Assembly: GCA_031556275.1 (NCBI GenBank)
Contig: JAVBTG010000001.1
Location: forward strand, 1 to 39,759
Origin: Opitutales bacterium
GTDB taxonomy: Bacteria; Verrucomicrobiota; Verrucomicrobiia; Opitutales; JAKPNF01
Direction: 5' to 3'
Length of the DNA stretch: 39,759 nt
In this document: positions 1 to 31,273 of the stretch, piece after piece
How positions within the stretch are numbered: position 1 is the first letter of the stretch
Layout of the letters: the number at the start of each line of letters is the position of its first letter
Translations under genes and position numbers: made by a program
The notes under the pieces: model-generated
What the model was told of the DNA's origin: nothing
What the model saw: the letters and a program-made list of their open reading frames with translations, nothing else
Database searches by the model: none

Positions 1-861
1 CTCGGTCTCCGTGAAAATGACGGCACCGTCAGGCACCTCCAATTCAAAGGACCAGTCATAACGATTGATGCGGTAACCGCGCTTGTCGGCGACCATAGTG
101 TCGTCGTCCCGTGTCAACCGTATCCGGACGGGCGTTTCCACGCGACGGGAATCTCCGCTAAGCAGATCTGCCTCCAACACGGTTCCGTCCGTCGGGATTC
201 TTTTGAAGAAATGTGTGGCGGACGTGATTAACGGTTCCGCCCCCTGCGAATGCCACATGCGAAAAATAATGGGGTTTTCAAATGAGCCCCAATCGCCAAA
301 TTGGGTGGCATGCCGTTTCAGGTTTGATTCGGCCTGAACGTAACCGGCTTTTTCGAGCCGGAGAAGGGAGATATCCTCGGCATTGAATCCGCTGACATTA
401 AACCGGCCGGCCGAGTCCGTGAGCACGGAAAATTCAAAACCGCCCTCGTTTACCTCATTGTCGGGTTTTCGAAACAGACGCTTGGTATGCAAATTCACCC
501 GTACCTCTGGAATGCCGACACCCTCCTGATCGACCGCCAGTCCAAATATAATGACAGGATGGTTCATCGTGTTGATGGACCGACGCATGGCCTCTCGCAG
601 TCGTTGCTGGTAAAGGCGTTCCTCCAGGCCGGCGCCCTTCGGTTCGCCGAGAATGCTCGTGAGCCGCATGTCGTAGGGGGTTTCAAGTCCGTCGGGGTCC
701 AAATTATGTGGTTTCGCTTCGACTTGTCCGCCTGCGTGGTTCGGGGCAACCGTCGTCACCTCCATTTTCCCGGATTCTTCCCTGGAAAGATAGGAAGATA
801 GGCCGAAAAGCAAAACTGCCCCCGCGACGATAACGATGGTCTTTTTTTTTGATGTTTTCAT
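1..861 (-). CDS. N-terminally membrane-anchored beta-sandwich protein, partner of giant hydrolase (copy A; C-terminus lies beyond window start)
   Basis: Absent from the ORF track because it runs off the window. My minus-strand translation from ATG 861..859 gives MKTSKKKTIVIVAGAVLLFGLSS...LDPDGLETPYDMR...HPVIIFGLAVDQEGVGIPEVRVNL...NPIIFRMWHSQGAEPLI...YDWSFELEVPDGAVIFTETE. This is colinear with ORF 24385..25539 (LDPNGLQTPYDMK, VFHGRVLDQDDEGIPGVEVQL, NPVVFRMWRSQGAEPIL, YDWRFEVEVPGGGIIL). The start overlaps the stop of 858..5333 as ATGA (plus-strand tcat, 858-861). Confidence 0.75.
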   Translation of the reverse strand, partial: MKTSKKKTIVIVAGAVLLFGLSSYLSREESGKMEVTTVAPNHAGGQVEAKPHNLDPDGLETPYDMRLTSILGEPKGAGLEERLYQQRLREAMRRSINTMNHPVIIFGLAVDQEGVGIPEVRVNLHTKRLFRKPDNEVNEGGFEFSVLTDSAGRFNVSGFNAEDISLLRLEKAGYVQAESNLKRHATQFGDWGSFENPIIFRMWHSQGAEPLITSATHFFKRIPTDGTVLEADLLSGDSRRVETPVRIRLTRDDDTMVADKRGYRINRYDWSFELEVPDGAVIFTETE

Positions 862-3800
862 TTCTTTATGCCGCTGTCTTCCATAAAAGTGGTCCAAAAA
901 TTGACATGCTTGCCCATCCAGTAATTGAATTGCCCGCTGTGGTCCAGTTCGTGATCAGTAAATCCGGCCCCCAGCGGTCGGTCGATAAAATGTGTCGTTC
1001 TGTCGAGATCCACGGCCCCAAGGGCCCGCAGGTATGCCCCCGCAACGAAACTGAATATTTCATATCGATCCCGGTCAAATACCAGTGAAGCGGGATTTTG
1101 AGTTTGATGATTCCTGAAATATTCGGCTCCCGGCTCGGGTTTCTGGGGCCATTTGACTTCATATAAAAACCCTCCCATCGTGCCGAACTTTGAGCTGTCC
1201 GGTTTGCACCATTGATTAAAATTCCATTTTGAAAGCGCATAATCTAACGGATTGTAAAAATTGATCCAGCGCTTGGCCGCCAATGTAATATCCGCGCTGC
1301 CACTATCTCCATCAAGACTGTGCATATACGGAACACTTTCGGCGCCGCCGTCAGGATAGTGCCCGTAAACATCCGGTGACGTCGGACTGTCTCTGACAGT
1401 TTGAAGGCGCCAATAAGTGGTGAAGACACTTGCCGTTATGGCCGCCTGGCAGGCGGAATAACTCTCCAGAAGCTCGACGCTGGGATATCTTTCAAAGTAA
1501 AGTTTCAACGCCTCGCATGCAATGGTGTTCCCTTGGCTGTGCCCCATTAAATGGACCCGATAGCCTTTGTCTTTGAGCTCCATCAGCAGGCTTAGCAGGG
1601 TTTCCGCGGACTTCCATGCGATGAACTCGCTCTGGTCAAAGTAATATTTTGTGTTGCACGGCCACAAAAATACGCCCGCGCGCCCCTTGTAGCCTAGCTG
1701 AAACAGCCGTTTGAACATTGTTTCGCCAATGTTTTTCTTTTCCTGTTCATTCATATTGTAGCCGTGGACCAGAAGCACATAATCTTTTTCGTCCTCCGCC
1801 GCAGGGGCCGATGCGTACTGCGCATACCCGCTCAAATAGCGGCGGTTTCCGACACTTGCGTTGGTGACGAAGGCACCGGATTGCTCGCATTTGTAGGCTT
1901 CCATCATTGTTTTGACGGGAACCGAATGCACCGTAAGCTGGCTGCCTGGATTTTTTGGAAAGGCGTCCGATTTCGATTTCACGTAGGCGCTCAGGCGCAA
2001 TGTGAGCGTTTGGCTTGTCTCCAATAGGAAAGAGCATTCCGCATCCTCGTTTGTATCCGAAAAACGAAGCATTGAATAGGGAACAGCTTTGCGGCGCGCC
2101 CCATCCCCTTCGGACGAAAAGAAGGTTTTCTGTTGCATCTGTTCTTCTGCCTTTAACCACACCTGGGCGAAGGGAGAAATGCCGAGATCATCGCGCACGC
2201 CGACGGTTGAGACAGACGGATACATGTTCCATTTGCGCCGTTTATTCGCGACGCTTGCGACGTTTGATTCGATATACAGTTCCATTTTCCCTGATTCCAA
2301 AAACGGCCGAATTTTCTTGGCTCCAGGGATTTTAAAGCGGATCAGATGCAGATCTTCCAAGTCACGGCGTCCGTTGATCCTGTCATCCGCCCCGTTTGGC
2401 GCTCCCTTGCCGTCCGGGTTGTCTATTTCTTTTTCACGGGCTTCGGTGTCGTAGTCGTCGTTGTTCCAGATGTAGAAGGCGTCCGGGTCGACGGCCGCGA
2501 GCAGATGGGCGCGGCGGGGAGTTTTTGTATCGCCGTCGACAACGAAGGTGTGGGTGGCCTTGTCGTAGGTTGACATGTATTCGATCTCGCCGTCGCCGTC
2601 GAAATCCGCCCCGATGTCAATGTAGGGCAGCAGATCTATTTTTTTTGTGTCAACCGCGACCAACGGAGAAGATCTGAGCAGCTGGGGGGATTGGGCCGCC
2701 GATTGGGAGTTCCCCCACTTAACCCGCAGCGTGACTGTCATGGTCCCGGGCTTCGTGGCGTATAGGCCGATCTGGCCGACTCTCGGTTCCCATTGGTCTG
2801 GCGACGGGAGGAATGTGTGCAGATCTTGCCCTGAGAGGGTGATGGTTCCGCCCCCGTCGCCGGGCGGGGTGAGCGCTTGCATGATTTGACCGTTCAGCGT
2901 CACTTGCCCTTTGGAGATGGCGGAAGAACAAGTGGGGGCAAAGGCGATAAGGCCGCCTTCCCCGGCGATTTCTATGGTGGCGAATTCGATATGCCAGTGG
3001 TATGGGTAATCCCCGGAATCACTGAACGGATCGACTCTCATGTAGGTTACATATTCGGAATCGAGTTCAATTATGTTGTCCGAATTTGTTTGTCCCTGAG
3101 GAGGCGGTGGAACCTGCATGGTTTCGGGCGTGCTGATCTCGTGGGAAACACCCGACAACGAAACAGCGTATTCGCCTTGGCTGCCTATGACATGATTGAC
3201 CCACTCGACTTCGCTCGGATAGGTGTCCGGGTCGTCATAGTCGTCGATTGTTTCTTCGCAGGCGGCAAGGAAAGATTCCGAGAGGATAATTTTTTCCGTG
3301 TCGAGCACTTGCATCTGGCTTTCATCCGGCCGGCCTCTTTTGTCGTACGGAATAAAAAGGCGGTGTTTCAGCACATAATAGCGGTACCTTGTGTCGCGGC
3401 GCGAGTACGGAGCCATTTTGTATTTGTAAGCGGCCCTGCTGACGACGGCCATGTTTTGACTGGAATAATGGGCGGCGGATATCCTGTCCGCTCTGATAGA
3501 CGAAACGATGTCGCTACAGTGAGTCTCCTCGGGAGGTCTGTCGTACCTTATTTGGCCGAAGTTCGGGTCACGCCCAGATCCTAGAGATTGGCTGATCCAG
3601 CCCAGTCGCATTTGCGCCGTGATGGGTTGTGAAAGTCGGTATCTGGTGGTGTTCCAGCTTTCGCCGGCATGGCTTATCGGGGGGGAATCATAACGATAGA
3701 GGTGAGTGGGGCCCCACGAAGTCCAGTTAGAACCCACGATATTCGGACCTGACCCAAAGTTCCATTCCTCAGATCCAGAACTGCTTCCGCCCGCTGTTGT

Positions 3801-5333
3801 GTAGCGATACCAGTTGCGACGGCCGCTTTTTGGCATGTAGACCGCATGGGCATCTTGATCGTCTGTTGCTACAGAAGAAGGTTTCGGGATATCGTAATCG
3901 TGGCGAAAATAACGATGATATTCATAATCAATCACATTATAATACTGGTATGTCTCCGCGTCCTCTATCGAAGTGACGAACTCTCCGAATCCTCCCGATG
4001 AGCTGGCTTCCCATGTTTTTGCCATAGTCCAGACGAGCATTCGCGTGAAGTCGCCGATGCGAACTTGCAGTTGCGCGCTGTCCGAGATCAGTCCTGCGGC
4101 ATCTTCAGTCATGATCCTGTAGGTCAATGTGATGCCGTTGTCTGCCGGCAGGGCGAAGGAGGTGTCTTGATAGGAACTAACATTCATCCCCAGCTCCTCC
4201 AGCAGCTCGTCATTGCGATAGAGCAGCTGTTTCGTGACAGAAGCCCCACCCGGCTCGGCGCTTCCGGGCGTCCAGACAAAGGCAACAAGATTTTTAGGCA
4301 CACTCACTTCGGTGGGATAGAACTGCGTTGGCGCTTTTGGCCGCGGGAGAACCTCCTCATCCCGATTTTTCCCGGCGTCGTAAAGCTGCTTGTTGGTGGA
4401 GCCGTAGCCGACGCCCGCGCCGCCATTGGGGCCGTTGTTGGGGTCGCCGCTGCCGTCGTCGAGCGGGTCGAGGCCGTTATCCACCTCCCAACCGTCCGGC
4501 AGACCATCGCCGTCGGTGTCGGGGTTGTTGGGGTCGGTGCCAAATTGAAATTCTTGTCGGTTGGTCAACCCGTCGCCGTCGGCGTCGGTATCGGGGTCAA
4601 ACCCTTCCAGCGTGCCAAAATGTTCGATGATCCAGGAGTCGGGGATGCCCTCGAACATGGTCGACTGGCCCAAGTCGAAGGAGAACACCATTTTCAGCTG
4701 CCCGATATTGGCGGGGACATAGTTGCCCTTGAGCCATGCCTCGTAGGTCGCGCGCTCGGGCGTGCCAGGTTCGCCTTGCGGCGGCGGTTCGGGCCACGGA
4801 TAAGGGGAGTTCCAGTTAAGCGGATATCCCATCGACCACAGGTAAAGCCGGGTGTCGATACCGAACGAGATCAGTTGGTTGTAAAAGGGCAGCCCGACCG
4901 CCTTGAGTTGGCCGATGTTGGCGGGGGCGTAGTTGGCCGTGCGCCATTGGGGGTAGGCCGGGTCGGCGGGGCCGGGCGGGGCGGGGAAGAGGTCCGTTAG
5001 CGGAAAGCCTGCGCCGCCGGAGAGCAGGGACTCGAAATAGGCGTGGGCCTGGGTGGCCGTGTGCTTGAGCTGGCCGACATTAAGGGGGCCATAGTTATTT
5101 TGCGGCGCGTCGGCGTTGATGATCCGCGTGGCCGGGGCTGTCCACCAGGCGGGGGTTTGCGGCTGCGCCGGTTCCCCGACATCCTCGGCGTGAAGCGGCG
5201 TGAAGGCGGCGGCCGCGCACGCGAAGGCGGCGGCCAGGAAAATTTGGTGTGTTTTCAAAAGAGGGGCGGGGTTGGTCGTGTGTGCTGTTTGCGGCGCTGA
5301 AGAAAAGGAGCCAATAAAAGCGCTGTTTGTCAA
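858..5333 (-). CDS. giant secreted multidomain protein with C-terminal DUF900-type alpha/beta-hydrolase domain (copy A)
   Basis: 1491-aa ORF. It has a signal-like N-terminus (KTHQIFLAAAFACAAAAFTPLHA/EDV) and three NYxPxN(I/V)GQLK motifs (aa ~80-215). DPDTDADGDGLTNRQEF and DPNNPDTDGDGLPDGWE are thrombospondin-type-3-like Ca repeats (nt ~4449-4598), followed by an FN3-like stretch. The C-terminal ~308 aa (nt 861-1784) read DYVLLVHGYN..FLWPCN..RVHLMGHSQGN..YNPLDYAL..DHSGQ, matching the DUF900 (PF05990) pattern as I remember it, with the putative nucleophile Ser codon at 1536-1538. The called start is a TTG inside a TTGACA hexamer. TTG at 5258 (MKTHQIF...) is a plausible alternative start. Confidence 0.85.
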   Translation of the reverse strand: MTNSAFIGSFSSAPQTAHTTNPAPLLKTHQIFLAAAFACAAAAFTPLHAEDVGEPAQPQTPAWWTAPATRIINADAPQNNYGPLNVGQLKHTATQAHAYFESLLSGGAGFPLTDLFPAPPGPADPAYPQWRTANYAPANIGQLKAVGLPFYNQLISFGIDTRLYLWSMGYPLNWNSPYPWPEPPPQGEPGTPERATYEAWLKGNYVPANIGQLKMVFSFDLGQSTMFEGIPDSWIIEHFGTLEGFDPDTDADGDGLTNRQEFQFGTDPNNPDTDGDGLPDGWEVDNGLDPLDDGSGDPNNGPNGGAGVGYGSTNKQLYDAGKNRDEEVLPRPKAPTQFYPTEVSVPKNLVAFVWTPGSAEPGGASVTKQLLYRNDELLEELGMNVSSYQDTSFALPADNGITLTYRIMTEDAAGLISDSAQLQVRIGDFTRMLVWTMAKTWEASSSGGFGEFVTSIEDAETYQYYNVIDYEYHRYFRHDYDIPKPSSVATDDQDAHAVYMPKSGRRNWYRYTTAGGSSSGSEEWNFGSGPNIVGSNWTSWGPTHLYRYDSPPISHAGESWNTTRYRLSQPITAQMRLGWISQSLGSGRDPNFGQIRYDRPPEETHCSDIVSSIRADRISAAHYSSQNMAVVSRAAYKYKMAPYSRRDTRYRYYVLKHRLFIPYDKRGRPDESQMQVLDTEKIILSESFLAACEETIDDYDDPDTYPSEVEWVNHVIGSQGEYAVSLSGVSHEISTPETMQVPPPPQGQTNSDNIIELDSEYVTYMRVDPFSDSGDYPYHWHIEFATIEIAGEGGLIAFAPTCSSAISKGQVTLNGQIMQALTPPGDGGGTITLSGQDLHTFLPSPDQWEPRVGQIGLYATKPGTMTVTLRVKWGNSQSAAQSPQLLRSSPLVAVDTKKIDLLPYIDIGADFDGDGEIEYMSTYDKATHTFVVDGDTKTPRRAHLLAAVDPDAFYIWNNDDYDTEAREKEIDNPDGKGAPNGADDRINGRRDLEDLHLIRFKIPGAKKIRPFLESGKMELYIESNVASVANKRRKWNMYPSVSTVGVRDDLGISPFAQVWLKAEEQMQQKTFFSSEGDGARRKAVPYSMLRFSDTNEDAECSFLLETSQTLTLRLSAYVKSKSDAFPKNPGSQLTVHSVPVKTMMEAYKCEQSGAFVTNASVGNRRYLSGYAQYASAPAAEDEKDYVLLVHGYNMNEQEKKNIGETMFKRLFQLGYKGRAGVFLWPCNTKYYFDQSEFIAWKSAETLLSLLMELKDKGYRVHLMGHSQGNTIACEALKLYFERYPSVELLESYSACQAAITASVFTTYWRLQTVRDSPTSPDVYGHYPDGGAESVPYMHSLDGDSGSADITLAAKRWINFYNPLDYALSKWNFNQWCKPDSSKFGTMGGFLYEVKWPQKPEPGAEYFRNHQTQNPASLVFDRDRYEIFSFVAGAYLRALGAVDLDRTTHFIDRPLGAGFTDHELDHSGQFNYWMGKHVNFWTTFMEDSGIKK

Positions 5334-18490: not shown

Positions 18491-19123
18491 TTATTTTTTG
18501 GATACTGGCGGGGCGTCGGGCGGCGCGGGGTTGTCGGCGGGGATGTCTTGGTGTGGGAAAACCCTTTCGCGGTAGCGTTCGGGGATGCGGGCGAGGTAGT
18601 CTTGCGCAATGGCGACGGGGAGGGTTTCGGTTTTGGCGTTGACGGTGCCGTCGGGCAATTTTACGAGGTCTTTAAAGATGATTTTCAGCTGCCATGGGCG
18701 GTCCAGTTTTCGCTTCTCGTCGCGCCAGTCCAGCAAGAACCAAAACACTTCGGCGGTTAGGTCGCGCGATGCGAGGACGACGGGCTTTTCGGTGATCGGC
18801 TCATACGCGCGGTTTTGTTTTCCCCAAATGCAATCGCGTGAGTTTAATATAGTCGTACTGCCTCTGCAAAAAATGGAAATGCTGGTGTTTTGCTCAAGCG
18901 CCCCCGCCCATACGCGCGCGGACGGCGGGCCGCGCACTATGATTTCGACGAGGCCGTTTTCGGGGTCTTCGGGTAGGCGCAGTTCGAGCGAGACATCTTG
19001 CTGCGTCTTGCCGGTTGCCGGAGGCGGTTGAGCGGGCGGTTTACTGTCCGCGCGCAACGGGCAAAGGCAGATCGACGCGAGGATGGGGAGCGCGGCTGAT
19101 GGGAGAAGGAGGGGGATTTTCAT
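18491..19123 (-). CDS. secreted protein consisting of one copy of an unrecognised ~150-aa module (4th copy of the module in 19041..21191)
   Basis: 210-aa ORF with a signal peptide (MKIPLLLPSAALPILASICLCPLRA/DS). LELRLPEDPENGLVEIIVRGPP...LTAEVFWFLLDWRDE...RPWQLKIIFKDL...AQDYLARIPERYRER parallels the last module of the upstream protein (LRLPDDPADGHVEITVQGPP...LTARIFQMLLERRDE...QPWQLRIRFTDL...TPDYRAKIPERYREK). Confidence 0.75.
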   Translation of the reverse strand: MKIPLLLPSAALPILASICLCPLRADSKPPAQPPPATGKTQQDVSLELRLPEDPENGLVEIIVRGPPSARVWAGALEQNTSISIFCRGSTTILNSRDCIWGKQNRAYEPITEKPVVLASRDLTAEVFWFLLDWRDEKRKLDRPWQLKIIFKDLVKLPDGTVNAKTETLPVAIAQDYLARIPERYRERVFPHQDIPADNPAPPDAPPVSKK

Positions 19124-21191: not shown

Positions 21192-21245
21192 GATGGGGCG
21201 GGGGCATTTTGAGGAAAGGGGCGGTGGTTTGCAAGTATGCGGGCA

Positions 21246-21281
21246 ACAAAAACGCGCCCCGTTGGATGGGGCGCGTTTTGC
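21246..21281 (-). terminator. rho-independent terminator after the DUF308 gene
   Basis: aaaaacgcgccccgttggatggggcgcgttttg: a 9-bp GC stem with a 7-nt loop. A U-run follows on the minus strand. Confidence 0.7.
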
Positions 21282-21307
21282 GGATGGGTGTTGTGTGCGT
21301 TTCTTGC

Positions 21308-21808
21308 TCAGTCCGCCGTCGTCCAAGCGAGGCTGGAGACGCCTGTGAACAGGAGGTTTAGGCCGATCAGGATGCCCAAAAGGACATAGCTGGCTTCGGG
21401 GTTGAGCAGGAAGATGACGCCGAGGATCAAGGTCGCGATGGCGTTGATGAGGATGAGCACGGCGTTTTTCGCGTCGCGCAGCCGCCCCCATGCGACGAAC
21501 GAGAAGCCGGACTCGATCAGCATAAAAATACCGACGAGCGTCGCCAGGGCCAGCGTGCCTTCCAGCGGGTTGAACATCAGGAAGTAGCCCGCTATCAGGT
21601 AGAGCAGGAACATCACGACGTTGAGCAGTTTCGCCGCCGTGCCCGCGCAATAGGGAAATTGGAACAGCGCGAAAAACGCCGCGAACAGCAAGGCTACGCC
21701 GGCGAAGATGCTCGCCGACACGCTCGCCACTACCGGGAACAGGATGCAGAACACGCCGCCGATGATCAGCAGCACGGCCAGCAGACGGGATGTTTTTAGA
21801 CGGAACAT
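21308..21808 (-). CDS. HdeD/DUF308 family integral membrane protein
   Basis: 166-aa ORF with six evenly spaced hydrophobic helices. The repeating pattern is typical of DUF308 (LLIIGGVFCILFP, MFLLYLIAGYFLMFNP, LATLVGIFMLIESGF, ILGVIFLLNP, LGILIGLNLLFTGV). Confidence 0.7.
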   Translation of the reverse strand: MFRLKTSRLLAVLLIIGGVFCILFPVVASVSASIFAGVALLFAAFFALFQFPYCAGTAAKLLNVVMFLLYLIAGYFLMFNPLEGTLALATLVGIFMLIESGFSFVAWGRLRDAKNAVLILINAIATLILGVIFLLNPEASYVLLGILIGLNLLFTGVSSLAWTTAD

Positions 21809-22045
21809 GGATGTGCGGAGTTAAAGATGGTGGGTTGTGTGTTCTTGGGGAATATATGCCGGAATTTTGTGTTGGCAAAGGGGGGCGTGTGATTTTTGGT
21901 CGCGCGCGCGAAATTGGCGGGCGTTTTTAAGGAGACGGTAAATATTGACATTTCTTATAAAACGGGGTTTCCTGTGGGCGTCCATTCGTATCGAAAATAT
22001 GTGAGTGTGTTTTTGAGAATTTCAAAACCGAACAACCCCAAAAAT

Positions 22046-23377
22046 ATGAAAACAAAACATACCTTTCTCTCTGTTTTCACATGTCTGCTGGTGTTCGGCA
22101 CGGTTTGCCGAGCCGACCTCACCTGGGCGGACAACGTGGTCATCAACGGAAATCTGACCGTTACCGGAAGCGGGGCTATCCGTTCCTTCGCTCCCCTGGC
22201 GGCGCCCGCGACTATCGGCGTCACCGCCAGCCTCATCCCTAGCGGAGCGCAGGCGGTCTTCAATTGGAATCCGTCGACGGCGAGCCTGCTAGTCGGCGTG
22301 GGGGGGAATCGATTGGGCGTCAGCGGTAATCGCAACATAGTGATAGGGCTGCTCAACGATGTGGATGCGGCCAGTGTGGTTGTCTTGGGTGATCTTAATC
22401 ATGTCAGTTATTCAACAAACTCGTTCGTCGTGCTACGCTCAATGGCGAACGACACGTATAACAGCTTTGTGGCGGCTGTTTCTCACACGGAATTGGCGAC
22501 GTATTCCGTTGCTATAGCCAACGCGAGTGTGTACGAGGCGAAGAATTCCGCAGCGTTCTGCAACTCGGGTGTGAGTGGGGCAGACGCGTCCTTTGCGGCG
22601 GGCAATTCCTCCGTTTCCGTTGAGCGTGAGAGTGGCAGTTCCTTCAACATTGCCATGGGAAACTCCCGCATTGATAACATGGGGACGTCAAACACGATAT
22701 CCATGAACGTCGCTCTGGCGGGTTCTGAGATCGCTCCGTGGGATGATTCGGGAAATGTCGCTTCCTTTGCGGCGTGCCGCGCCCAGGTTTATGGGAGTCG
22801 TTCCTTTGCGGTATGCGAAGCAACCACCAATGGAGGAAATTACTCCTTCGCGGCGTGCGGAGGTTATATCGAGGGAAATTATTCGCTTGCGATCGGGAAG
22901 GGAACTAAGAGCATTCCCAGTGGGACGGTTGTGCTGGGCTGTTACAATAAAATGGCCGATTATGTCAAAGTGGACGAATGGGTACCTTCATCTTATTGGT
23001 TCGGTGGCGATCCGCTTTTCATGGTTGGCAACGGGCAGTCTGAAGACGCTCGCAGTAACGCGTTTTTGGTGCTGAAGAACGGAAAGGTTTGTGTGGAGAA
23101 CAAATATTGGGATCCAGCCGAACCGACATTTGCTCCATCCCAGCCGAAGAACGTGACCATAGTCCACAGTTCTTATTGGGACGATGATATAGAAGACTGG
23201 GTTGTGGATCAAGAGACGGGCGACGTGGACGAGGCGTCGGGCGGTGTCGCCCTTGAGGTGGGCGGGCACACCGTGCTGAAGGGCAACACGCGGCTGGACG
23301 GCAAGGTTACCATGAGCCAGCCGCAGGGGGACATATTGATGGGGGTGTTCGGCATGCCGCAGGCGACGCAGCCTTAG
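22046..23377 (+). CDS. secreted protein with YadA-head / Hep_Hag-like repeats (adhesin- or tail-fibre-like), no obvious membrane anchor
   Basis: ATG 22046 gives the signal peptide MKTKHTFLSVFTCLLVFGTVCRA/DL. Degenerate N-S-x-A-x-G type repeats are present (NSFVAAV, YSVAIANAS, NSAAFCNSG, ASFAAGNSS, FNIAMGNSR, YSFAACGG, YSLAIGKG). They are followed by PLFMVGNGQSEDARSNAFLVLKNGKV, a motif I associate with Hep_Hag / tail-fibre-like proteins. Confidence 0.5.
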   Translation: MKTKHTFLSVFTCLLVFGTVCRADLTWADNVVINGNLTVTGSGAIRSFAPLAAPATIGVTASLIPSGAQAVFNWNPSTASLLVGVGGNRLGVSGNRNIVIGLLNDVDAASVVVLGDLNHVSYSTNSFVVLRSMANDTYNSFVAAVSHTELATYSVAIANASVYEAKNSAAFCNSGVSGADASFAAGNSSVSVERESGSSFNIAMGNSRIDNMGTSNTISMNVALAGSEIAPWDDSGNVASFAACRAQVYGSRSFAVCEATTNGGNYSFAACGGYIEGNYSLAIGKGTKSIPSGTVVLGCYNKMADYVKVDEWVPSSYWFGGDPLFMVGNGQSEDARSNAFLVLKNGKVCVENKYWDPAEPTFAPSQPKNVTIVHSSYWDDDIEDWVVDQETGDVDEASGGVALEVGGHTVLKGNTRLDGKVTMSQPQGDILMGVFGMPQATQP

Positions 23378-23558
23378 GCGCGTTTGAGAATCATCAGCGC
23401 GACCGGCTTCACGGGATGTGTCTGGATGTCGGCTAATACGTCGACGGTGCTTCCGCATTCGTCTGATAGCCCAGGGGTGGGCGAAAATTCAGTTGGCGAA
23501 GGTATGAAAGAAAAATATCCGAAGTTCGTTTTTTACGACCCCAATGACAGTCTTGGGA

Positions 23559-24185
23559 CTATCTTGTTTTTTGTTTCGCCGCTTTCTCCGCGCGCATTTC
23601 CTCCAATAGCTTTTTTACGTCTTCACGCTCGTAAAATTCTTTGTAACGGAGATCCTTTTCGCGTTCGTACTCCAAATTGCGCGAGCCGGAGGGGTTGGTG
23701 TAAATGTCGTATGTGACGCTTATATCGGGATCCGCAATCCGATTACCGTTGCCAGGGCTTGTCGCAACGTCAAATTTTGCGCGCGTGTAACGCAGAGGGT
23801 TTTCCTCTTTTATGTAGCACCAAAATTCCTTGTTGCGAATCCAGGCGGGATTATCTTTATTCATGAGAGATGTTACCTCCGGCGTGTATCCCTCCTCGGG
23901 GGCCAAAAATGGTTGCACATCTTGCGTCAGGATCACGCCTCCGCTTGGGACGGACACGCTGAACGACCAGTCGTATTTTTTTCTTCCGTCAATATCCTGA
24001 GTTAGATTGGTTCGAATCGCGCGGATCTCGATTTGTCCTGTTGATGACAGTGTCCCTGTTGTGATGTCGATTTTTTCGGGAGCTCCCTTGCATGATATGC
24101 GCACCCAGCCTTGATTATAAATCATTGGTTCCGCGCCCTGCGCTTTCCACATGCGCAAGATTTCCGGGCGCTCATAGGGGGGCAA
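23559..24185 (-). pseudogene. orphan, 5'-truncated copy of the hydrolase-partner gene (C-terminal domain only; may still be expressed from TTG)
   Basis: 208-aa ORF with a TTG start, no signal or anchor, and no carboxypeptidase-regulatory-like domain. ILRMWKAQGAEPMI...KYDWSFSVSVPSGGVIL...YTNPSGSRNLEYEREKDL aligns with the C-terminal half of 24385..25539 (VFRMWRSQGAEPIL...KYDWRFEVEVPGGGIIL...HTNPSGSRNLEYDPEKDV). Weak similarity (EKDGYLRE vs LEKAGYVQAE) continues upstream to an in-frame TGA at 24261-24263. Confidence 0.55.
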
Positions 24186-24302
24186 TACGAAAGATGCCGG
24201 ATTACCGCGTGGGTTATAGGGGGCTGGCCGATTGTGCTCTCTCAGATATCCGTCCTTTTCTCAATCATCGATACTAAAAGTGGAGGCTTTTAAGCCCTGG
24301 AT

Positions 24303-24333
24303 GGAAAAAACGCCCGTTCGAACCGGCGGGCGG
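24303..24333 (-). terminator. rho-independent terminator after partner gene copy B
   Basis: Minus strand reads ccgcccgccggttcgaacgggcgtttttt: a GC stem followed by a U6 run, 50 nt after the stop of 24385..25539. Confidence 0.65.
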
Positions 24334-24384
24334 ATGAACCCGTTCTGCCGGGCCTTTTATGGATCCGCCATTGCGCGGGAGCGT

Positions 24385-25539
24385 TCACTTGCTTTCTTGA
24401 TTTTTATAAAACTCCATCAGGCGAACATCTTTTTCGGGATCATATTCCAGGTTTCGCGAGCCGCTGGGATTTGTGTGAAATTCGTAATTTAGCCTTATGG
24501 TGGGTTCCAGTTTTCCATCCCGTTCGCCGTCAAATGTCGCGATTGTGAGGGAGGCGCGGGAATAGCGGTTCGGGTTTCCCGTCACGATGTACGCCTTCAG
24601 TTCCTTTTCCGCGGACCAGTCCTTGGAATCCTTCCGCACCTCGTAGACGGCTTTTCTTTCATAACCCTTTTCGGGCGCAAAATAGGCCTGCTCGGCGTCA
24701 ACCAGTATTATTCCCCCCCCAGGCACCTCCACTTCAAAACGCCAGTCATATTTGAATTTCGCGCCGTATTCGCCTTGTTCTTTTGTTGCCGCCGCGTCGT
24801 CGCGCAAGACACTGAAAATCACAGGATCGGTGACCGACCTGCTTCCTCCCGCCAGCAAGTCGACCGTTTCCGGCGTGCCGTCGCTGGCGAGGCGCGCAAA
24901 CCCGCTTGCGGGCAATATCGGCTCGGCCCCCTGGCTGCGCCACATGCGGAAGACGACGGGGTTTTCGCGGCTGCCCCAAGCACCTCGCTGGGTCGAATGT
25001 TTTTGGCGGACATGCGGCGATTGGATGTAGTCTTTTTTCACCAAATTATAAACATCGATGTCAATGGCGTTGAACCCCTCCACGGAAAATTTTCCGTCGC
25101 CGCCGGTTTCAACGGAAAAATCGAACCTGTCCTGCCCATAGCGGCCGCCGCCGGGATCCTTGTACATGCGCGATGTCTTAAGCTGGACCTCAACCCCGGG
25201 AATCCCCTCGTCATCCTGGTCCAGAACGCGGCCGTGAAACACGACGGGCTTGTTGAGGCCCATATCCCGCTCGATGGCTTTTTGAACTTTCTTGTCATAT
25301 TCGGCCATCCAGGACGTCAGCACGGACGGTGTTCCCGCAGACCTCCGTTTCATGTCATATGGTGTCTGCAGGCCGTTCGGGTCGAGATGGCCCGAGGTCG
25401 CGCCTTTTTCAATTTTAGCAGCCGCGTCTTTCGTTTCGCGGATATCGGGTGCCGTGCCGCGCGTTTTGGGCCGAAAAAGAAACAAAACGAGCCCTGCAAC
25501 AACTAAAACAACTAATATTGCAAAAATTTTCCTTTTCAT
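24385..25539 (-). CDS. N-terminally membrane-anchored protein with carboxypeptidase-regulatory-like beta-sandwich and conserved C-terminal domain; partner of giant hydrolase (copy B)
   Basis: 384-aa ORF with a TM anchor (MKRKIFAILVVLVVAGLVLFLF). VFHGRVLDQDDEGIPGVEVQLKTS...GDGKFSVEGF is CarboxypepD_reg-like. The C-terminal ~200 aa are shared with 1..861 and 23559..24185. The ATG at 25539..25537 overlaps the TGA of 25536..30077 (ATGA). Confidence 0.85.
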   Translation of the reverse strand: MKRKIFAILVVLVVAGLVLFLFRPKTRGTAPDIRETKDAAAKIEKGATSGHLDPNGLQTPYDMKRRSAGTPSVLTSWMAEYDKKVQKAIERDMGLNKPVVFHGRVLDQDDEGIPGVEVQLKTSRMYKDPGGGRYGQDRFDFSVETGGDGKFSVEGFNAIDIDVYNLVKKDYIQSPHVRQKHSTQRGAWGSRENPVVFRMWRSQGAEPILPASGFARLASDGTPETVDLLAGGSRSVTDPVIFSVLRDDAAATKEQGEYGAKFKYDWRFEVEVPGGGIILVDAEQAYFAPEKGYERKAVYEVRKDSKDWSAEKELKAYIVTGNPNRYSRASLTIATFDGERDGKLEPTIRLNYEFHTNPSGSRNLEYDPEKDVRLMEFYKNQESK

Positions 25540-28500
25540 TTCTGTGCCCTTTTTATTTTGGTCAATTCGAAAAATGTCTCCCAGAAATTCCCCCTTTGGG
25601 CCAACGAATAATTTAGCTGGCCCTGGTGGTCGTCCATTTCGTCAGTGAACCCGTATAGCGCGCTTGAGAGGTTGGCTTCCCCGCCGACCCCAATGACCCC
25701 GACCGAGACGGCCCCCATCGCGCGCACATAGGACCCCGCCGCAAAACTGAAAATCTCGTACCTGTCCCGGTCGAATATCAATTGCTTTTCCACGGACACA
25801 AAGGCCTTATCCCGCCATTCACTATGGATTCTGGAATAGTATGCGGATGTTCCGGGCGCTCCCGTGTAAAGGACGTCGTAGGAAACCAGCCCGGTAAACA
25901 GGGTGTTGTCGGGTTTTGTGCGTTGGGCCCATTCCCAGTTGAAGTAGAGCCAGGAACCGCCGGTAAGCGCAAAATCGTTGGGATTGTAAAAATTGACCCA
26001 ACGCCCGGCCGCCTTCGTTATATCGAGCGCGCTTGCGCGCATGTAAGGTTTTTGGCCGGACAGTCCGTGGGGATAATGCCCATACACGTTCGGAGAGTTT
26101 TGGGTGTCCCTGATAAGGTCGAACGACGAAGTGTTATTAAACACATTCGCCGATATCGCGGCCTGGCAGGCCGTGTAGCTCTCCACCCAAGGCGTATTTG
26201 AAGAGGCGAACCCGTGTATGCGCAGCGCCTCGCAGGCGACCACGTTGCCTTGGCTGTGCGCGACCAGGTGCACGCGGTAGCCGCGCGCTTTCAGGGAATC
26301 TATGTGGAGTTTCAGCGCGATAGCCGTCTGCCATGCGCGGTATTCGCTTAAATCGAAAAACGGAATATAGCTGCAATTCCAAAAAAACGCCCCCGTGCGC
26401 CCCTTATAGCCCGAATGGTGCAGACGCTTGAAAATCGCCGCCAGGCTTTCTTTTTTGCCGTCCGCGCCGTTCTGAAATCCGTGGACGTATAGCACATAGT
26501 CCTTTTCGTCGTCGTTAACGGGGGCGGGGAATCTCGCGTAACCTTTAACATGCTGGGCGATGCTCACAGCCATCGAACCGGCGCCCCCTTCCGTCGTCGA
26601 TTCGTACGCCTCGACCATGTCCTTGACCTGACTGGACCGGACCGTCACCGACTTTGCCGCATGCAAGGATTCCGGGAGCTGGGAAGGCCCCATGTGGACC
26701 GTCAGTTTCATGTCTTCGGACCTAAAATTTTCAAACAGCACGGACACTTCCAGATCGTCGTCCATCACATTCAGCATGTTTGAAGGTATTTTGATGGCCG
26801 GGTTGTCGGAGCCACTTGAAGTCATGCATTTCATCGACAACTGCAATTTTTCCGCCGCCGTGAGGTTGGGCGTGAAGTCAACCCGCCCCTTGCCTGTTGA
26901 TATCGATGGGTACACATTCCAATAACCCCGGCTTGTGCTGCTTTGCATGTTGCCGACGTTCAGGTACAGCGAATATCCCCCCGCATCCTTCAAATGCGCC
27001 GCGTTTTTGACCCGGAAACGGATCAAATGCAAGTTAAGCAAATCGTTGCCGTCTTCTATTTTTGGCTTCAGGTAAGGAAAAAGCGAACCCTGTTGCCTGT
27101 TGTCCCAAATCTTCAGCGTGCTTGGGGGCGCAAAGCTTACGCCGCGGTAGTCTTCCTTGTAGTCGCCGTTTACTTTGAATTTCTTCGCCACCTTGTCGTA
27201 TTCGGAAAGATATTCGACGGCGCCGTCGCCGTCGACGTCGGCGCCGACGTCGATCTGCGGCATAAGGTAAATAACCCTCTTTTTCACGACTTTCATTCGC
27301 GCGTTGGGCAGCGAAACCATTATCTCCAACTCAATCGGACCCGGCTTTAGCGGATAGACGCGCACACTGAGCAAGGGGATTGTGTCGCTGTTGTCCTTGT
27401 TCTCGATGGTAAATGCGCCGCCGTTTCCGCCAAGCATGTAATAGAGGGTCTCGCCGACTTTTACCGTGGGATAATTACCCGTCAGCAGGCGGGGCAGCTC
27501 GCTGTGAAGGTCGGTGTAAAAAAAGCCCTCGCCCACGCCGGAGATATAAACGTCCACCCGTTCCCAGCGTTCTTCCTCGACCAGCTCCTTCAGTGAAATG
27601 CCGACACTGACCCAGTTTTGCCAACTGTTGTCGGGGGCGGGGTATTCGGGAATGTTGCTGGCCGCCGACCGCAGCAGGCTGGAGGACGGCGGCGGCGAAT
27701 CCGGTACTTGTATGACAAGGGGAATTATCGCGCTGACGAACAGCTGGCCCAAGGACACTTCCCGTTTGCCGAAACGGCTCTCGTCGTAGTCGAGCGCGAT
27801 CTCCTCGCTCGGATAGGCGTTCGGGTTGCTGATGCATTCCTCGACGAAGGCTTGGGAGAGATTGACGCGCCGGCGTTGTTCCACGACCTTTTCATCGAGT
27901 AAAACGTCATACCCGGACCCAGACTCCCTCGCCTTGTAGGGCGTGAACGTCTGCACGATATCAACGTAATAGCGTTTGTCCCTTTGCGGGGTCCCCCTAA
28001 TCCTGTATTTGAAGACGCATTTTTGCGTTTCCCCGTCCTTGGCGTCGGCAAAACAGTGGGCCATCGGTTCGCTGTTGATATTGTATGGATCCGATGTCGA
28101 TGCGCCGAGGCTTGAAACTTTGGTCTGCCCGAATTCGGGTTGAACTGCCCCGGACATCTGTTCCGCGCACCAGGAAAGGCGCAATTGCGGTGTGATCAGC
28201 TCGTCGAGCTCCTGCGATCTGGCATAGTCACTCCATCCCCCGTCGCCGTGTCCGCCAAATCTCCTGCCAGATTCTCCGCGCCCGGGGCAGCCCGGGATGG
28301 AACATGTGTCAGGGTCGCTTTCGAGACTGCTGTAGTCGCTATATGGCGTCCCTCTTTCGCTTTTGGCTTCACGGCAAAGGGTCTCCGTTTTTTCAACATC
28401 CGGACTTGCCTCGTTAAAAGTCCAAATCGGATATGTGTTGACCAACGGCTTCTCGTCTTTTTTCGACACAGGATTGTGATCGTCGCTCTCTTTATGAACG

Positions 28501-30077
28501 GACTCTATATCACTGCCCTCAAGGGTGAAGATATGGTAGTCGTCCTTTTTAGACTCGAGTGAATATTTCGACAGGCCGAGGCCCGTCTTCGCCTCGTAGT
28601 CAAATGAGAACTCTTCCTCGGAGGAAAAGAAGCGCTCACTTTTCTCATACATCTTCTCGTATGAGCTTTCAATAATGCAACAATCGTTTTTTGAACGCGA
28701 AAAGTGGTAGCTGTCCTCGGAAACGCTATAGTATCCCTCGGCATCGAAAGATGATCCCGAGATTTTATTGTAATACCGGTATGTCCCCTCCGGGCCCGGC
28801 ATGAAACCGCGGATGCCGACGTTCGCGCTGGCGCTCCATGTCTTGGCTATCGTGGACACCAGGGCCTCCTCGAAATCCCCGACGCGCGCATCGCAGGAGC
28901 CGGAACTTGCGCGCATACCGGCGGAATTGACCGTCACAATCCAGTACACGAGCGTGACGCCGTCGTCTTCCGGCAATGTGAAGGAGGTGTCCGTGTAAGT
29001 GGTGGCGTCCGCGCCCAAACGCGCGACGATCGCCCCGTCACGCCACACCTGCACCTGGGTGACGGGCGGTTCGTCCGCGGGAGGCTGGTCAAGGTTCCAG
29101 ACGAGTTTTATCGCGTCCAATGCGCTGTCCTCGACCTCTAAATTGTAGGCCGCCGGGGGATTTGGATAGGAAACCTCGTCCCAATTTTTTCCAGAGTCGT
29201 ATAATTCCTCATTGGTCGGGCCCCAGCCCGCCCCGGAAACGCCATTGGGCCCGTTATTGGGGTTTATACTGCCGTCGTCCAAGGGATCGAGACCGTTCTC
29301 CACCTCCCAGCCGTCCGGCAGGCCGTCGCCGTCGGTGTCCGGGTTGTTCGGGTCCGTCCCCAGCTCGTATTCCCGGCGGTTGGTCAGGCCGTCGTTGTCG
29401 GCGTCGCCGTCCGGGTCAAAACCATTCATGCTTCCGAAGTGCTCCAAAATCCAACTGCGGGGAATGCCGTCGACATCGCTGAAGAATTCCAGCAATTCCG
29501 ACAAGTCGAAACTGAACACCATTTTCAACTGGCCGATGTTGGCGGGCGCGTAGTTCTCAATGGCGGGCGTGGCCGGGTTCCAGGGATACGGCAGGCTCCA
29601 TGTGCCGGGATACCCCCTCGCGACGAGATTGGCCCGGGTGTCATATCCCAAAAACAGCAGCGCGTCGTAAAGCGGCTTGGCCATCGCCTTGAGCTGCCCC
29701 AAATTCGCGGGCGCGTAGTTTGAGCGCAGCCATTCCTCGTAAACGGACCGCGCCGGCGTTTCCGGTTCCCCTCGGGGCGGCGCGGGCGGGATCAAATCGG
29801 AAATTTCAAAGGGCAGATATCCCGGCACGGTCTCGTTCAGATAGACGTATGCCATGCTTACCGCATGCTTGAGCTGCCCGATGTTGAGGGGGGCGAAATT
29901 GTCGGCAACCGATCCGGCGCCCGTGTCGAGGATCCGGCTGCTGCTTGCCGTCCACCAGGCGGGCAGGGGGGTGCTTGAGGGGGAGGGATTTTCGGATTCC
30001 TGGGCAAAAGAGGCCAGGGGTATCAGCAACGCGGCGATCGCACACAGGATTTGTTTCATGTTCTGGAATTTTTGCAT
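25536..30077 (-). CDS. giant secreted multidomain protein with C-terminal DUF900-type alpha/beta-hydrolase domain (copy B)
   Basis: 1513-aa ORF with a signal peptide (MKQILCAIAALLIPLASFA/QES) and three N(F/Y)APxN(I/L)GQLK motifs. The TSP3-like repeats DPDGDADNDGLTNRREY and DPNNPDTDGDGLPDGWE are followed by an FN3-like segment. The C-terminal 321 aa (nt 25539-26501) read DYVLYVHGFQ..FFWNCS..RVHLVAHSQGN..YNPNDFAL..DHQGQ, colinear with copy A. The nucleophile Ser codon is at 26253-26255, and the motif is AHSQG rather than GHSQG. Confidence 0.88.
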   Translation of the reverse strand: MQKFQNMKQILCAIAALLIPLASFAQESENPSPSSTPLPAWWTASSSRILDTGAGSVADNFAPLNIGQLKHAVSMAYVYLNETVPGYLPFEISDLIPPAPPRGEPETPARSVYEEWLRSNYAPANLGQLKAMAKPLYDALLFLGYDTRANLVARGYPGTWSLPYPWNPATPAIENYAPANIGQLKMVFSFDLSELLEFFSDVDGIPRSWILEHFGSMNGFDPDGDADNDGLTNRREYELGTDPNNPDTDGDGLPDGWEVENGLDPLDDGSINPNNGPNGVSGAGWGPTNEELYDSGKNWDEVSYPNPPAAYNLEVEDSALDAIKLVWNLDQPPADEPPVTQVQVWRDGAIVARLGADATTYTDTSFTLPEDDGVTLVYWIVTVNSAGMRASSGSCDARVGDFEEALVSTIAKTWSASANVGIRGFMPGPEGTYRYYNKISGSSFDAEGYYSVSEDSYHFSRSKNDCCIIESSYEKMYEKSERFFSSEEEFSFDYEAKTGLGLSKYSLESKKDDYHIFTLEGSDIESVHKESDDHNPVSKKDEKPLVNTYPIWTFNEASPDVEKTETLCREAKSERGTPYSDYSSLESDPDTCSIPGCPGRGESGRRFGGHGDGGWSDYARSQELDELITPQLRLSWCAEQMSGAVQPEFGQTKVSSLGASTSDPYNINSEPMAHCFADAKDGETQKCVFKYRIRGTPQRDKRYYVDIVQTFTPYKARESGSGYDVLLDEKVVEQRRRVNLSQAFVEECISNPNAYPSEEIALDYDESRFGKREVSLGQLFVSAIIPLVIQVPDSPPPSSSLLRSAASNIPEYPAPDNSWQNWVSVGISLKELVEEERWERVDVYISGVGEGFFYTDLHSELPRLLTGNYPTVKVGETLYYMLGGNGGAFTIENKDNSDTIPLLSVRVYPLKPGPIELEIMVSLPNARMKVVKKRVIYLMPQIDVGADVDGDGAVEYLSEYDKVAKKFKVNGDYKEDYRGVSFAPPSTLKIWDNRQQGSLFPYLKPKIEDGNDLLNLHLIRFRVKNAAHLKDAGGYSLYLNVGNMQSSTSRGYWNVYPSISTGKGRVDFTPNLTAAEKLQLSMKCMTSSGSDNPAIKIPSNMLNVMDDDLEVSVLFENFRSEDMKLTVHMGPSQLPESLHAAKSVTVRSSQVKDMVEAYESTTEGGAGSMAVSIAQHVKGYARFPAPVNDDEKDYVLYVHGFQNGADGKKESLAAIFKRLHHSGYKGRTGAFFWNCSYIPFFDLSEYRAWQTAIALKLHIDSLKARGYRVHLVAHSQGNVVACEALRIHGFASSNTPWVESYTACQAAISANVFNNTSSFDLIRDTQNSPNVYGHYPHGLSGQKPYMRASALDITKAAGRWVNFYNPNDFALTGGSWLYFNWEWAQRTKPDNTLFTGLVSYDVLYTGAPGTSAYYSRIHSEWRDKAFVSVEKQLIFDRDRYEIFSFAAGSYVRAMGAVSVGVIGVGGEANLSSALYGFTDEMDDHQGQLNYSLAQRGNFWETFFELTKIKRAQK

Positions 30078-30202
30078 GGAGTATTAAAAATGCCCTCGTT
30101 GGGGGGCAAGGCCTCCAAAATCAATCGGCCTGAGCAAAGACAAAACGCCCCGCCATTGCGGTCCGCCTCACGCGGCCTGCCGTTCCGGGTGATCCTCAAA
30201 AC

Positions 30203-31273
30203 TTACTGCCCCGCGCCGCCTCTGAGCGAGGCGCTTTCGCCGGAGGTGCGGATGGTGACGCTCTTGCCTGTCGCGGACAGCGGCACGCCGAGGGTGTGCG
30301 CCCCGGCGCACAGCATGATCACGTCTCCCGACGCGGCGGCGGATATGGCCCCGGGGATGGTCGCCTTGGGGCCGACACCGTTTCCGGCGGCGACGGGCGA
30401 AAGGCCGTTGTAGGCGTCGCTTCCGGTGGCGGGATTAACGTAAAAAACACTCTCCGCCCCGTTTGACTGCAAGGAATACATCGCGAGGTTTGCGTTTTCT
30501 GAAATGAGAGCGGCTTGCGGGGACGCCTCGTTTTGCCCGGCGGCGGCGCCATTTGCCGCGCGGGCGGAATTCCCGGCGTCGCGCATCGACAACAGGCCGC
30601 CGGCGTTGTCCGGACTGTCCTGCGACAGCAGGGAACCCAAGTCCCCGACGCACACGTCGTCCGCCATGACGGCCGAACCGTTCGCCAGGATGGAGAGCCA
30701 TGACGAGCCTTGCGCCCCGTCGAGCGGGAGTCCCAGGCTTGCGATCTCCCCGTCGACGAAAAAGTCCCAGACCGGCGTCCCTGTCGTGTGATCCTGCCAG
30801 ATGGTCAGGCGCAGCCACTGGGAGACGCCGTCCGCGTCGAGCGGCAACGCCTGGGAGACGGGCGCCCATGCCTCGCCCACGCGCGCGTAAAACACGCCGT
30901 CGCCGTCTCCTTCCCGCACGAAGGCAAGCTGTGATCCCCCGAATTCCAGCAAAGGCTCTGTCACCGCCTCAAGGCCCGCGCTCGCGGAAAGTTTCAACCG
31001 CACGTCGGCATAAAGCGCGCCGGCGTCTTGGGCCGCCAACTCCAATGTCGCGCCTCCTGCCGAAAGATAAAGGACGCGCTCGCCCGTGGGCGCCTCGAGG
31101 CTCTCCGCGACCATTCCCGAACCGCTCCACGGGCCCTGCCCGACGACAGGCCCCAGCACGTAATGCTCCTGCGCCTCAAATGAATGGCTCGCGCCGAAGA
31201 CCGTTATAACCAGCGGCATCCCGGCACAAAACAATGCCGCCGATACCGTCGTCGCATATTTGGAATGTCGCAT
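30203..31273 (-). CDS. secreted protein: ConA/LamG-like jelly-roll followed by only the N-terminal cap of a right-handed beta-helix domain
   Basis: 356-aa ORF with a signal-like N-terminus (TTVSAALFCAGMPLVITVFGASHS). WLRLTIWQDHTTGTPVWDFFVDGEI is LamG-like. The C-terminal FYVNPATGSDAYNGLSPVAAGNGVGPKATIPGAISAAASGDVIMLCAGAH matches the cap motif of DUF1565/pectate-lyase-like beta-helices. The ORF stops ~30 aa later, 125 nt upstream of the giant gene. Confidence 0.65.
   Translation of the reverse strand: MRHSKYATTVSAALFCAGMPLVITVFGASHSFEAQEHYVLGPVVGQGPWSGSGMVAESLEAPTGERVLYLSAGGATLELAAQDAGALYADVRLKLSASAGLEAVTEPLLEFGGSQLAFVREGDGDGVFYARVGEAWAPVSQALPLDADGVSQWLRLTIWQDHTTGTPVWDFFVDGEIASLGLPLDGAQGSSWLSILANGSAVMADDVCVGDLGSLLSQDSPDNAGGLLSMRDAGNSARAANGAAAGQNEASPQAALISENANLAMYSLQSNGAESVFYVNPATGSDAYNGLSPVAAGNGVGPKATIPGAISAAASGDVIMLCAGAHTLGVPLSATGKSVTIRTSGESASLRGGAGQ

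Follow-up and report, generated by a model that had tools for sequence, protein, structure and literature searches.

The stretch of DNA analyzed here (the window) comprises 39,759 nucleotides, positions 1 to 39,759 of contig JAVBTG010000001.1 from an Opitutales bacterium (assembly GCA_031556275.1). It carries two copies, A and B, of a two-gene arrangement in which the gene for a giant protein ending in a lipase-like hydrolase domain (bigA and bigB) overlaps the gene for a smaller, membrane-anchored protein that we call the partner (partnerA and partnerB). A truncated third partner gene lies downstream of copy B, and all module genes of both copies are on the minus strand. A preliminary description of this DNA had likened the arrangement to effector/immunity organization; the positions it gave are correct for all open reading frames (ORFs), for the ATGA overlap of each pair, for the Ser/Asp/His motifs, for the copy at 1..5333 and for the shortened partner remnant. 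The genes are as follows (aa, amino acids; HMM, hidden Markov model):

25536..30077, minus strand: bigB, 1513 aa from an ATG start; putatively exported giant protein and toxin candidate.
24385..25539, minus strand: partnerB, 384 aa; predicted inner-membrane-anchored periplasmic protein and immunity candidate.
25536..25539, minus strand: ATGA stop/start overlap between bigB and partnerB, read in the sequence.
858..5333, minus strand: bigA, 1491 aa from TTG; second giant hydrolase, with Ser1266, Asp1364 and His1465.
1..861, minus strand: partnerA, first 287 aa of a gene cut by the window edge; ATGA overlap with bigA at 858-861.
23559..24185, minus strand: orphan partner paralogue, 208 aa from TTG, N-terminally truncated; covers HMM profile positions 161-367.

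The two giant proteins are 47% identical over their N-terminal parts (aa 33-439) and 33% identical over the C-terminal ~970 aa; similarity is weak across aa ~460-900, and the hydrolase domains alone share 46% identity. The enzymatic end had been singled out as the conserved part. The constancy of the hydrolase bears this out, but in the window the N-terminal 440 aa are equally conserved, and it is the region between aa ~460 and ~900 that varies. PartnerA and partnerB share 37% identity. The orphan is 40% identical to aa 192-384 of partnerB and is missing the membrane anchor and the first beta-sandwich.

Linkage of the two genes was assessed from both sides. For the partner side, a partner-motif scan of GTDB species genomes returned 147 relatives, nearly all from Verrucomicrobiota with a few from Planctomycetota. 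Eighty of these loci, together with four found earlier, gave 84 loci with about 110 partner genes, which were scored with purpose-built hydrolase and partner HMMs. Directly upstream of the partner we found:

Full hydrolase gene: 56 partner genes.
Hydrolase remnant: 12 partner genes.
Another partner gene: 16 partner genes.
None of these (solo partner): about 14 partner genes.
Contig edge: the remainder of the ~110.

A hydrolase gene or remnant was therefore directly 5' of 68 of the ~110 partner genes, and a 4-bp overlap (ATGA or GTGA) was present at 46 of the 65 junctions with an assignable start; the neighborhood and the ATGA junction both recur in related genomes. For the hydrolase side, metagenomes were scanned with RDLEDFARL, a motif of the segment preceding the hydrolase domain (the pre-domain), yielding 80 loci and 83 pre-domain ORFs; in 72 of the 74 cases where the sequence extended far enough beyond the hydrolase gene, a partner gene followed. 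The partner family is thus not one that usually occurs apart from a giant hydrolase, an outcome the preliminary description had treated as counting against its proposal. When 1.84 billion cluster representatives were searched exhaustively with a partner profile, 1,828 relatives of the partner (clusters at 50% identity) scored E<=1e-30 and 4,370 scored E<=1e-10, while word-indexed homologue searches under-sampled the families (24 partner, 13 hydrolase and 3 pre-domain matches). The hydrolase-partner pair is a conserved and widespread two-gene module of Verrucomicrobiota.

The two proteins also diverge together. Across 106 modules the correlation between hydrolase and partner divergence was r = 0.73, a value reached by none of 999 Mantel permutations. 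The median identity between pairs of sequences was 33% among hydrolases and 28% among partners. Modules in the same genome were 26-67% identical, and paralogues in the same locus were mostly 26-41% identical, with one pair at 58-67%. One explanation for the pairing is that these are merely co-transcribed envelope proteins that do not interact, the partner having a function of its own, for example in envelope structure or as a sensor. A near-invariant partner motif described below, NPxGSRNLE, could serve a hydrolase-independent function. Nevertheless, the near-obligate linkage in both directions, the conserved 4-bp overlap and the co-divergence of the pair make this explanation highly improbable.

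The C-terminal domain of bigB and its catalytic residues, each read from its motif, are located as follows:

25539..26507, minus strand: alpha/beta-hydrolase domain, divergent DUF900 (Pfam, AlphaFold2 and Foldseek).
Codon 26253-26255, minus strand: Ser1275 in AHSQG.
Codon 25974-25976, minus strand: Asp1368 in NPNDFAL.
Codon 25626-25628, minus strand: His1484 in DHQGQ.

The Ser, Asp and His residues were invariant in 106 of 106 non-redundant hydrolase domains. When an AlphaFold2 (AF2) model of the domain (pLDDT 66.5, pTM 0.76) was compared with the PDB using Foldseek, the matches were exclusively esterases and lipases. The preliminary description had allowed for a different fold or for a triad that is not conserved among homologues; the model and the alignment agree instead on an alpha/beta-hydrolase fold with a Ser/Asp/His triad, as in members of DUF900. 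The DUF900 match (PF05990) that it had predicted was obtained for bigA (24.9 bits against a gathering threshold of 20.5) but not for bigB, whose score of 16.7 fell below that threshold. Relatives scored between 17.3 and 46.2 bits, and one had no match. These sequence matches place the hydrolase in a divergent branch of the DUF900 family. The Tle lipase families of type VI secretion are DUF2235, Lipase_3, DUF3274 and PLD. Pfam searches with the hydrolases returned DUF900 and generic Abhydrolase matches only and no Tle1-5 family, and a PDB sequence search with the hydrolase profile found no relative, Tle1 and Tle4 entries included.

Upstream of the hydrolase domain, bigB contains these elements:

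30003..30077, minus strand: predicted Sec-type signal peptide, aa 1-25, ending LASFA/QE (sequence and hydrophobicity test).
29277..29405, minus strand: TSP3 bacterial calcium-binding repeats, aa 225-267 (PF18884, 30 bits against a cut-off of 25).
29884-29901, 29704-29721 and 29539-29556, minus strand: three repeats of the motif NxGQLK, at aa 65, 125 and 180.
26508..27380, minus strand: pre-domain, aa ~900-1190, defined from alignments A4 and A5, with motifs DVDGDG, IWDN and DLLNLHLIRF.

By the hydrophobicity test, an N-terminal signal was flagged in 29 of the 35 hydrolase proteins of at least 722 aa and in none of the 10 short hydrolase ORFs (312-666 aa). The TSP3_bac match exceeded the Pfam threshold in both bigA and bigB, as had been predicted, and TSP3 is the N-terminal element most widely common to other family members. 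Taken as a whole, the N-terminal regions of relatives are a mosaic of Ig, FN3, PKD, discoidin (F5/8 type C), LCCL and TSP3 modules. The NxGQLK motif also occurs in bigA (aa 85, 139 and 209) and in giant hydrolases of loci L067, L082, L132, L145 and L147, and the TSP3 segment adjoining it weakly resembles the Amuc_1099 pilus-like family of NCBIfam.

The pre-domain (~290 aa) carries the family motifs VDANRDG, FWxNDDxD, RDLEDFARLW, LFEGxxxGKGxL and DIKxMYERWTVG, and the hydrolase was encoded in the same ORF in 80 of the 83 metagenome pre-domain ORFs. PDB sequence searches with two independently built pre-domain profiles returned the calcium-binding middle Ig domain of the protein-arginine deiminases (PAD) PAD2, PAD3 and PAD4 in 21 of 21 matches with one profile and 6 of 7 with the other, at E-values of 0.08-0.3 that are suggestive and not significant. 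The pre-domain is probably calcium-binding and PAD-like.

Four kinds of locus departed from the simple pair. In the first, two or three divergent partners stand behind one hydrolase (arrays; L004, L005, L031, L041 and L029). In the second, the 10 short hydrolase ORFs mentioned above, most of which start within or just before the pre-domain, are each followed by a partner of their own; five such signal-less hydrolases lie downstream of a full module as displaced cassettes (L005, L011, L076, L057 and L029). In the third, the hydrolase is reduced to its last 60-240 aa, with the catalytic Ser gone, and a full-length partner follows (L016, L019, L033, L047, L050 and L077); the ATGA junction between these dead stubs and their partners is still intact. 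In the fourth, the roughly 14 solo partners have unrelated genes upstream, including those for LptD, DUF1501, PP2C and a xylose-isomerase-like protein. One metagenome-assembled genome combined a full module, a dead-toxin-plus-partner locus and two solo partners (L049, L019, L021 and L048). Together, the arrays, displaced cassettes, dead stubs with live partners and solo partners fit the evolution of a toxin/immunity system and not that of a foldase or anchor; a foldase, chaperone or anchor is disfavored because nothing would maintain it once its client was lost.

Two of the solo partners are directly behind other lipolytic genes, a GDSL lipase and a 'Putative esterase' (L054 8628-9740; L048 8004-9383). 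This may be chance, or partners may pair with other hydrolases. We also observed a more distant sister module (L002 3106-6475; L003 2885-5868 and onward; L013, L016, L042 and L078), consisting of an alpha/beta hydrolase that matches just the N-terminal half of the hydrolase profile and a shorter partner-like protein (Big_1/CarboxypepD_reg). The sister module is at times in tandem with the main one and adjoins RelB/ParE genes, and in L003 further gene pairs of similar size lie downstream of it.

These patterns bear on the possibility that the giant protein is a nutritional enzyme, secreted or surface-exposed, that degrades lipids, cutin or other esters, and that the partner just shields the cell's own envelope during export with no role in killing. 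Verrucomicrobiota are polymer degraders, and such an enzyme would be well served by N-terminal modules of carbohydrate- or surface-binding type (F5/8 type C, PKD, FN3, Ig and LCCL) and by a Sec signal peptide; that no delivery machine is linked to the module is likewise as expected. On the other hand, solo partners and arrays imply protection against hydrolases that are not encoded in the genome, and rapid pairwise diversification (the 1,828 clusters and the low identity of paralogues) along with displaced cassettes typifies conflict systems rather than catabolic enzymes. We consider a purely nutritional role improbable.

The partner was proposed from its sequence to be an N-terminally anchored beta-sandwich protein, and the AF2 model of partnerB (pLDDT 84.5) agrees: a transmembrane helix (aa 2-21) is followed by a disordered linker, a transthyretin/CarboxypepD_reg-like sandwich (aa 97-167) and a larger all-beta domain (aa 195-357). 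A PDB fold search with the partner model matched only generic beta-sandwiches, the larger domain having no close counterpart, and a PDB sequence search with the partner profile found no relative. The predicted CarboxypepD_reg match (PF13620) was weak, at 16.3 and 14.9 bits in the two window partners where 32.3 are needed; two fused relatives exceeded the threshold (33.5 and 35.9 bits). Apart from this weak match, the family corresponded to no Pfam or NCBIfam model. An N-terminal hydrophobic helix was found in 70 of the 71 family members whose start could be assigned, and the charge distribution predicted an N-in orientation for 67 of the 70, which would place the partner body (~330 aa) in the periplasm. 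The suggestion that the partner is the anchor of a surface-tethered esterase was rejected on this topology, since the protein sits in the inner membrane with its bulk on the periplasmic side.

Conservation in the partner is highest in a motif near its C-terminus:

24439..24471, minus strand: near-invariant partner motif NPSGSRNLEYD, partnerB aa 357-367 (alignments A2 and A3).

Across 106 partners the N, G, R, N, L and E of NPxGSRNLE were 94-100% conserved. Despite the low median pairwise identity of the family (28%), the extended motif NPxGSRNLE(Y/F)D is almost invariant, and it may serve to plug the active site, to cap the structure or in recognition. In some proteins the two beta domains of the partner are fused to long N-terminal regions (L058 8264-10828; L081 8147-10867; P0054, 884 aa; P0130, 653 aa); a TSP3 repeat occurs in one such region, and in one protein two separate stretches match the partner profile.

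A membrane-anchored protein encoded next to a lipase could also be a periplasmic helper, that is, a steric foldase, chaperone, or export or activation factor, according to the logic of the Lif foldases of Pseudomonas and Burkholderia lipases. The N-terminal membrane anchor and periplasmic body of the partner, the position of its gene immediately 3' of, and translationally coupled to, a lipase-like gene, and the co-divergence of the pair are all consistent with this. In addition, known Tli proteins can be required for activation of their effectors (bioRxiv 10.1101/2023.03.28.534661). However, a helper would not be expected as a solo gene in housekeeping contexts or as two or three divergent partners after one hydrolase, and a clientless helper should decay, whereas intact partners are kept behind dead hydrolase stubs. 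Lif itself is alpha-helical, is found 1:1 with its lipase and is not known to occur as orphans or in arrays. The partner shares with Lif its membrane-anchored periplasmic character and its gene position, but in the AF2 model it is all-beta after the anchor, and it gave no Pfam signal for Lif (PF03280); with orphans and arrays also present, a Lif-type foldase was rejected. We regard a helper role in place of inhibition as unlikely.

What remains is the reading that we favor, in which each copy is an autonomous toxin/immunity module of two genes, a lipase-like toxin and a periplasmic immunity partner. We think this is probably correct on the comparative evidence, and the module looks like a bacterial weapon with no need of a dedicated injection machine. 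The resemblance to effector/immunity organization first noted in the window is supported by the linkage and by the locus patterns, which are comparative in kind. The giant protein would be exported through Sec and would combine a mosaic, adhesin-like N-terminal part with a fixed, probably calcium-binding pre-domain and a C-terminal lipase/esterase of DUF900 lineage. Envelope lipids of competing cells would be the most likely target of its hydrolase, approached from the periplasmic or outer side. Through the ATGA overlap, translation of the partner would be coupled to that of the toxin, and the N-terminal anchor of the partner would hold it on the periplasmic face of the inner membrane. As the toxin would cross the periplasm after Sec export, the two proteins would meet in one compartment, where the partner would most likely bind and block the hydrolase, keeping the producer safe during export and its kin safe from incoming toxin. 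The family would diversify as cognate pairs, leaving behind displaced cassettes, dead toxins with live partners, arrays and solo partners.

Several known systems offer a comparison. Phospholipase effector-immunity pairs of type VI secretion, Tle1-5/Tli, were reportedly described by Russell et al. in 2013. The module resembles them in having a candidate toxin of Ser-nucleophile lipase type, a proposed action on the periplasmic side, an adjacent gene for a putative periplasmic immunity protein, and extra and orphan immunity genes in genomes. Both adjacency and periplasmic topology of the partner agree with what is expected of Tli-type immunity. In contrast to Tle/Tli, the module combines Sec signal peptides with a DUF900 lineage that has no sequence relative in the PDB, no type VI secretion system (T6SS) genes are linked to it, and the fold of its partner has no relative among solved structures. 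A Sec signal peptide on the candidate toxin is a misfit with T6SS loading. Membership in T6SS Tle/Tli was rejected because of the signal peptides on most long toxins (29 of 35), the lack of T6SS linkage and the different sequence families. More generally, no secretion-system genes of types V, VI or VII (VgrG, Hcp and PAAR included) were found in the window or in six Pfam-annotated contexts, in agreement with the preliminary description of the window.

Classical polymorphic toxins such as those of contact-dependent inhibition (CDI) and Rhs systems share with the module an immunity-type gene immediately 3', displaced C-terminal cassettes with immunity genes, arrays and solos, and a conserved segment before the toxin domain inside which orphan cassettes begin. 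The polarity of variation is reversed here, however: the C-terminal toxin and pre-domain are constant while the N-terminal part is a mosaic. There are also no type V, VI or VII secretion systems, Rhs/YD repeats or PT-type demarcation motif. As the same hydrolase follows the pre-domain in nearly every ORF (80 of 83), classification as a classical polymorphic toxin was rejected. The survey of Zhang et al. 2012 (PMC3482391) lists three alpha/beta-hydrolase toxin families and ties SUKH, Imm66 and Imm69 to Tox-ABhydrolase-2/3; the partner differs from all three of these immunity families.

By analogy, the logic of the module appears closest to that of modular bacteriocins such as colicin M/Cmi. Like colicin M/Cmi and pesticin/Pim, it has variable N-terminal modules, a conserved C-terminal enzyme and a self-contained two-gene unit with no injection machine. 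Those bacteriocins have periplasmic targets, and an N-terminal helix anchors their immunity proteins to the inner membrane on its periplasmic side, an arrangement also predicted for the partner. The bacteriocin toxins are small proteins that are not known to use Sec for export and that carry Ton/Tol-dependent uptake domains. In contrast, the proteins described here are giant and appear to be Sec-exported, no Ton/Tol uptake domains were detected in them, their enzymology is different, and no sequence or fold relationship between the two groups was found. Enzymatically, the nearest comparison is Cinquedea, a secreted alpha/beta hydrolase of Haloferax larsenii shown by experiment to be a bactericidal phospholipase A, most homologues of which carry DUF900 (bioRxiv 10.64898/2026.06.10.730825). 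Cinquedea makes a membrane-lipid target plausible for the hydrolase here, although it is archaeal and encoded by a single gene, no immunity gene is mentioned for it, and it is not known to be closely related to the hydrolase here.

No characterized system was found to which the pair belongs. Pfam and NCBIfam lack a model for the partner beyond the weak CarboxypepD_reg match, neither protein has a sequence relative in the PDB, the partner is not among the immunity families that Zhang et al. 2012 associate with the Tox-ABhydrolase toxins, and literature searches on DUF900, PF05990, COG4782 and Verrucomicrobia toxin/immunity gave no account of the pair. Both protein families and their architecture are undescribed, while the pairing of a toxic lipase with periplasmic immunity is a known principle.

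Several observations weigh against a toxin/immunity module. The hydrolase model is of medium confidence, the Foldseek TM-scores are low (0.2-0.3) and the DUF900 match of bigB is under the Pfam threshold. Co-divergence would equally arise between any two genes that are linked. In contrast to classical polymorphic toxins, the toxin domain does not vary, and a single motif as the most conserved element of the partner is unusual for an immunity protein that determines specificity. A candidate toxin of ~1500 aa would have to cross two outer membranes to enter the periplasm of a competitor. Finally, some Tli proteins also activate their effectors (bioRxiv 10.1101/2023.03.28.534661), so immunity and helper roles of the partner may coexist.

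We also put forward, tentatively, a more specific form of the toxin/immunity proposal. Sec-exported, machine-independent, bacteriocin-like lipases could be the main interbacterial weapon of Verrucomicrobiota, with swappable N-terminal adhesin modules setting the target range. The partner could then represent a new class of inner-membrane-anchored immunity protein that inserts NPxGSRNLE into the catalytic pocket and draws its specificity from the surrounding variable surfaces.

The remaining features of the window concern the surroundings of the two copies:

24305..24358, minus strand: hairpin followed by U6, a plausible intrinsic terminator of the bigB-partnerB operon (fold -22.8 kcal/mol).
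30203..31273, minus strand: 356-aa ORF upstream of bigB, with a signal-like N-terminus.

The terminator that had been noted after partnerB is present and plausible as a hairpin with a U-tract, but its fold is unexceptional against shuffles (z -1.6) and a consensus terminator scan missed it. The 356-aa ORF had been described as a secreted jelly-roll gene of the module; it had no Pfam match to bear out that fold. By tblastn it weakly resembled the N-terminal regions of giant hydrolase ORFs (L094, L096, L086 and L013), and its C-terminus resembles what we take to be the beginning of a beta-helix domain, at which it ends; the ORF may be a gene fragment. It was rejected as part of the module, as it is not conserved beside the module elsewhere and is set apart from bigB by a terminator-like hairpin (30108-30091).

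Elsewhere the window consists of ordinary chromosome, with genes for a SpoIIE-type phosphatase, GlmS, an aldose epimerase, Fic and a PEGA protein. The G+C content is 0.52-0.56 in the module stretches (1-4000 and 22000-29000) compared with 0.59-0.64 in neighboring housekeeping genes, consistent with DNA that is accessory or was transferred horizontally; G+C is likewise low in the Fic region (11-14 kb). Two large ORFs adjoining the orphan, at 21896-23377 (plus strand, 493 aa) and 19041-21878 (minus strand, 945 aa), had no Pfam match. The former has degenerate short repeats and a hydrophobic, signal-like segment ~50 aa into the listed ORF; its true start is perhaps further downstream.

Antagonism is almost unexplored in Verrucomicrobiota, a phylum that includes relatives of Akkermansia, the Opitutales and lineages abundant in soil and fresh water. 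Should the toxin/immunity reading be correct, this very large family would be a toxin/immunity system of the phylum that operates without type V, VI or VII machinery. It would add a new immunity fold, a new toxin architecture in which a PAD-like calcium-binding domain is joined to a DUF900 lipase, and a functional handle on DUF900 itself. It would also be a case of a toxin whose targeting end recombines instead of its killing end.

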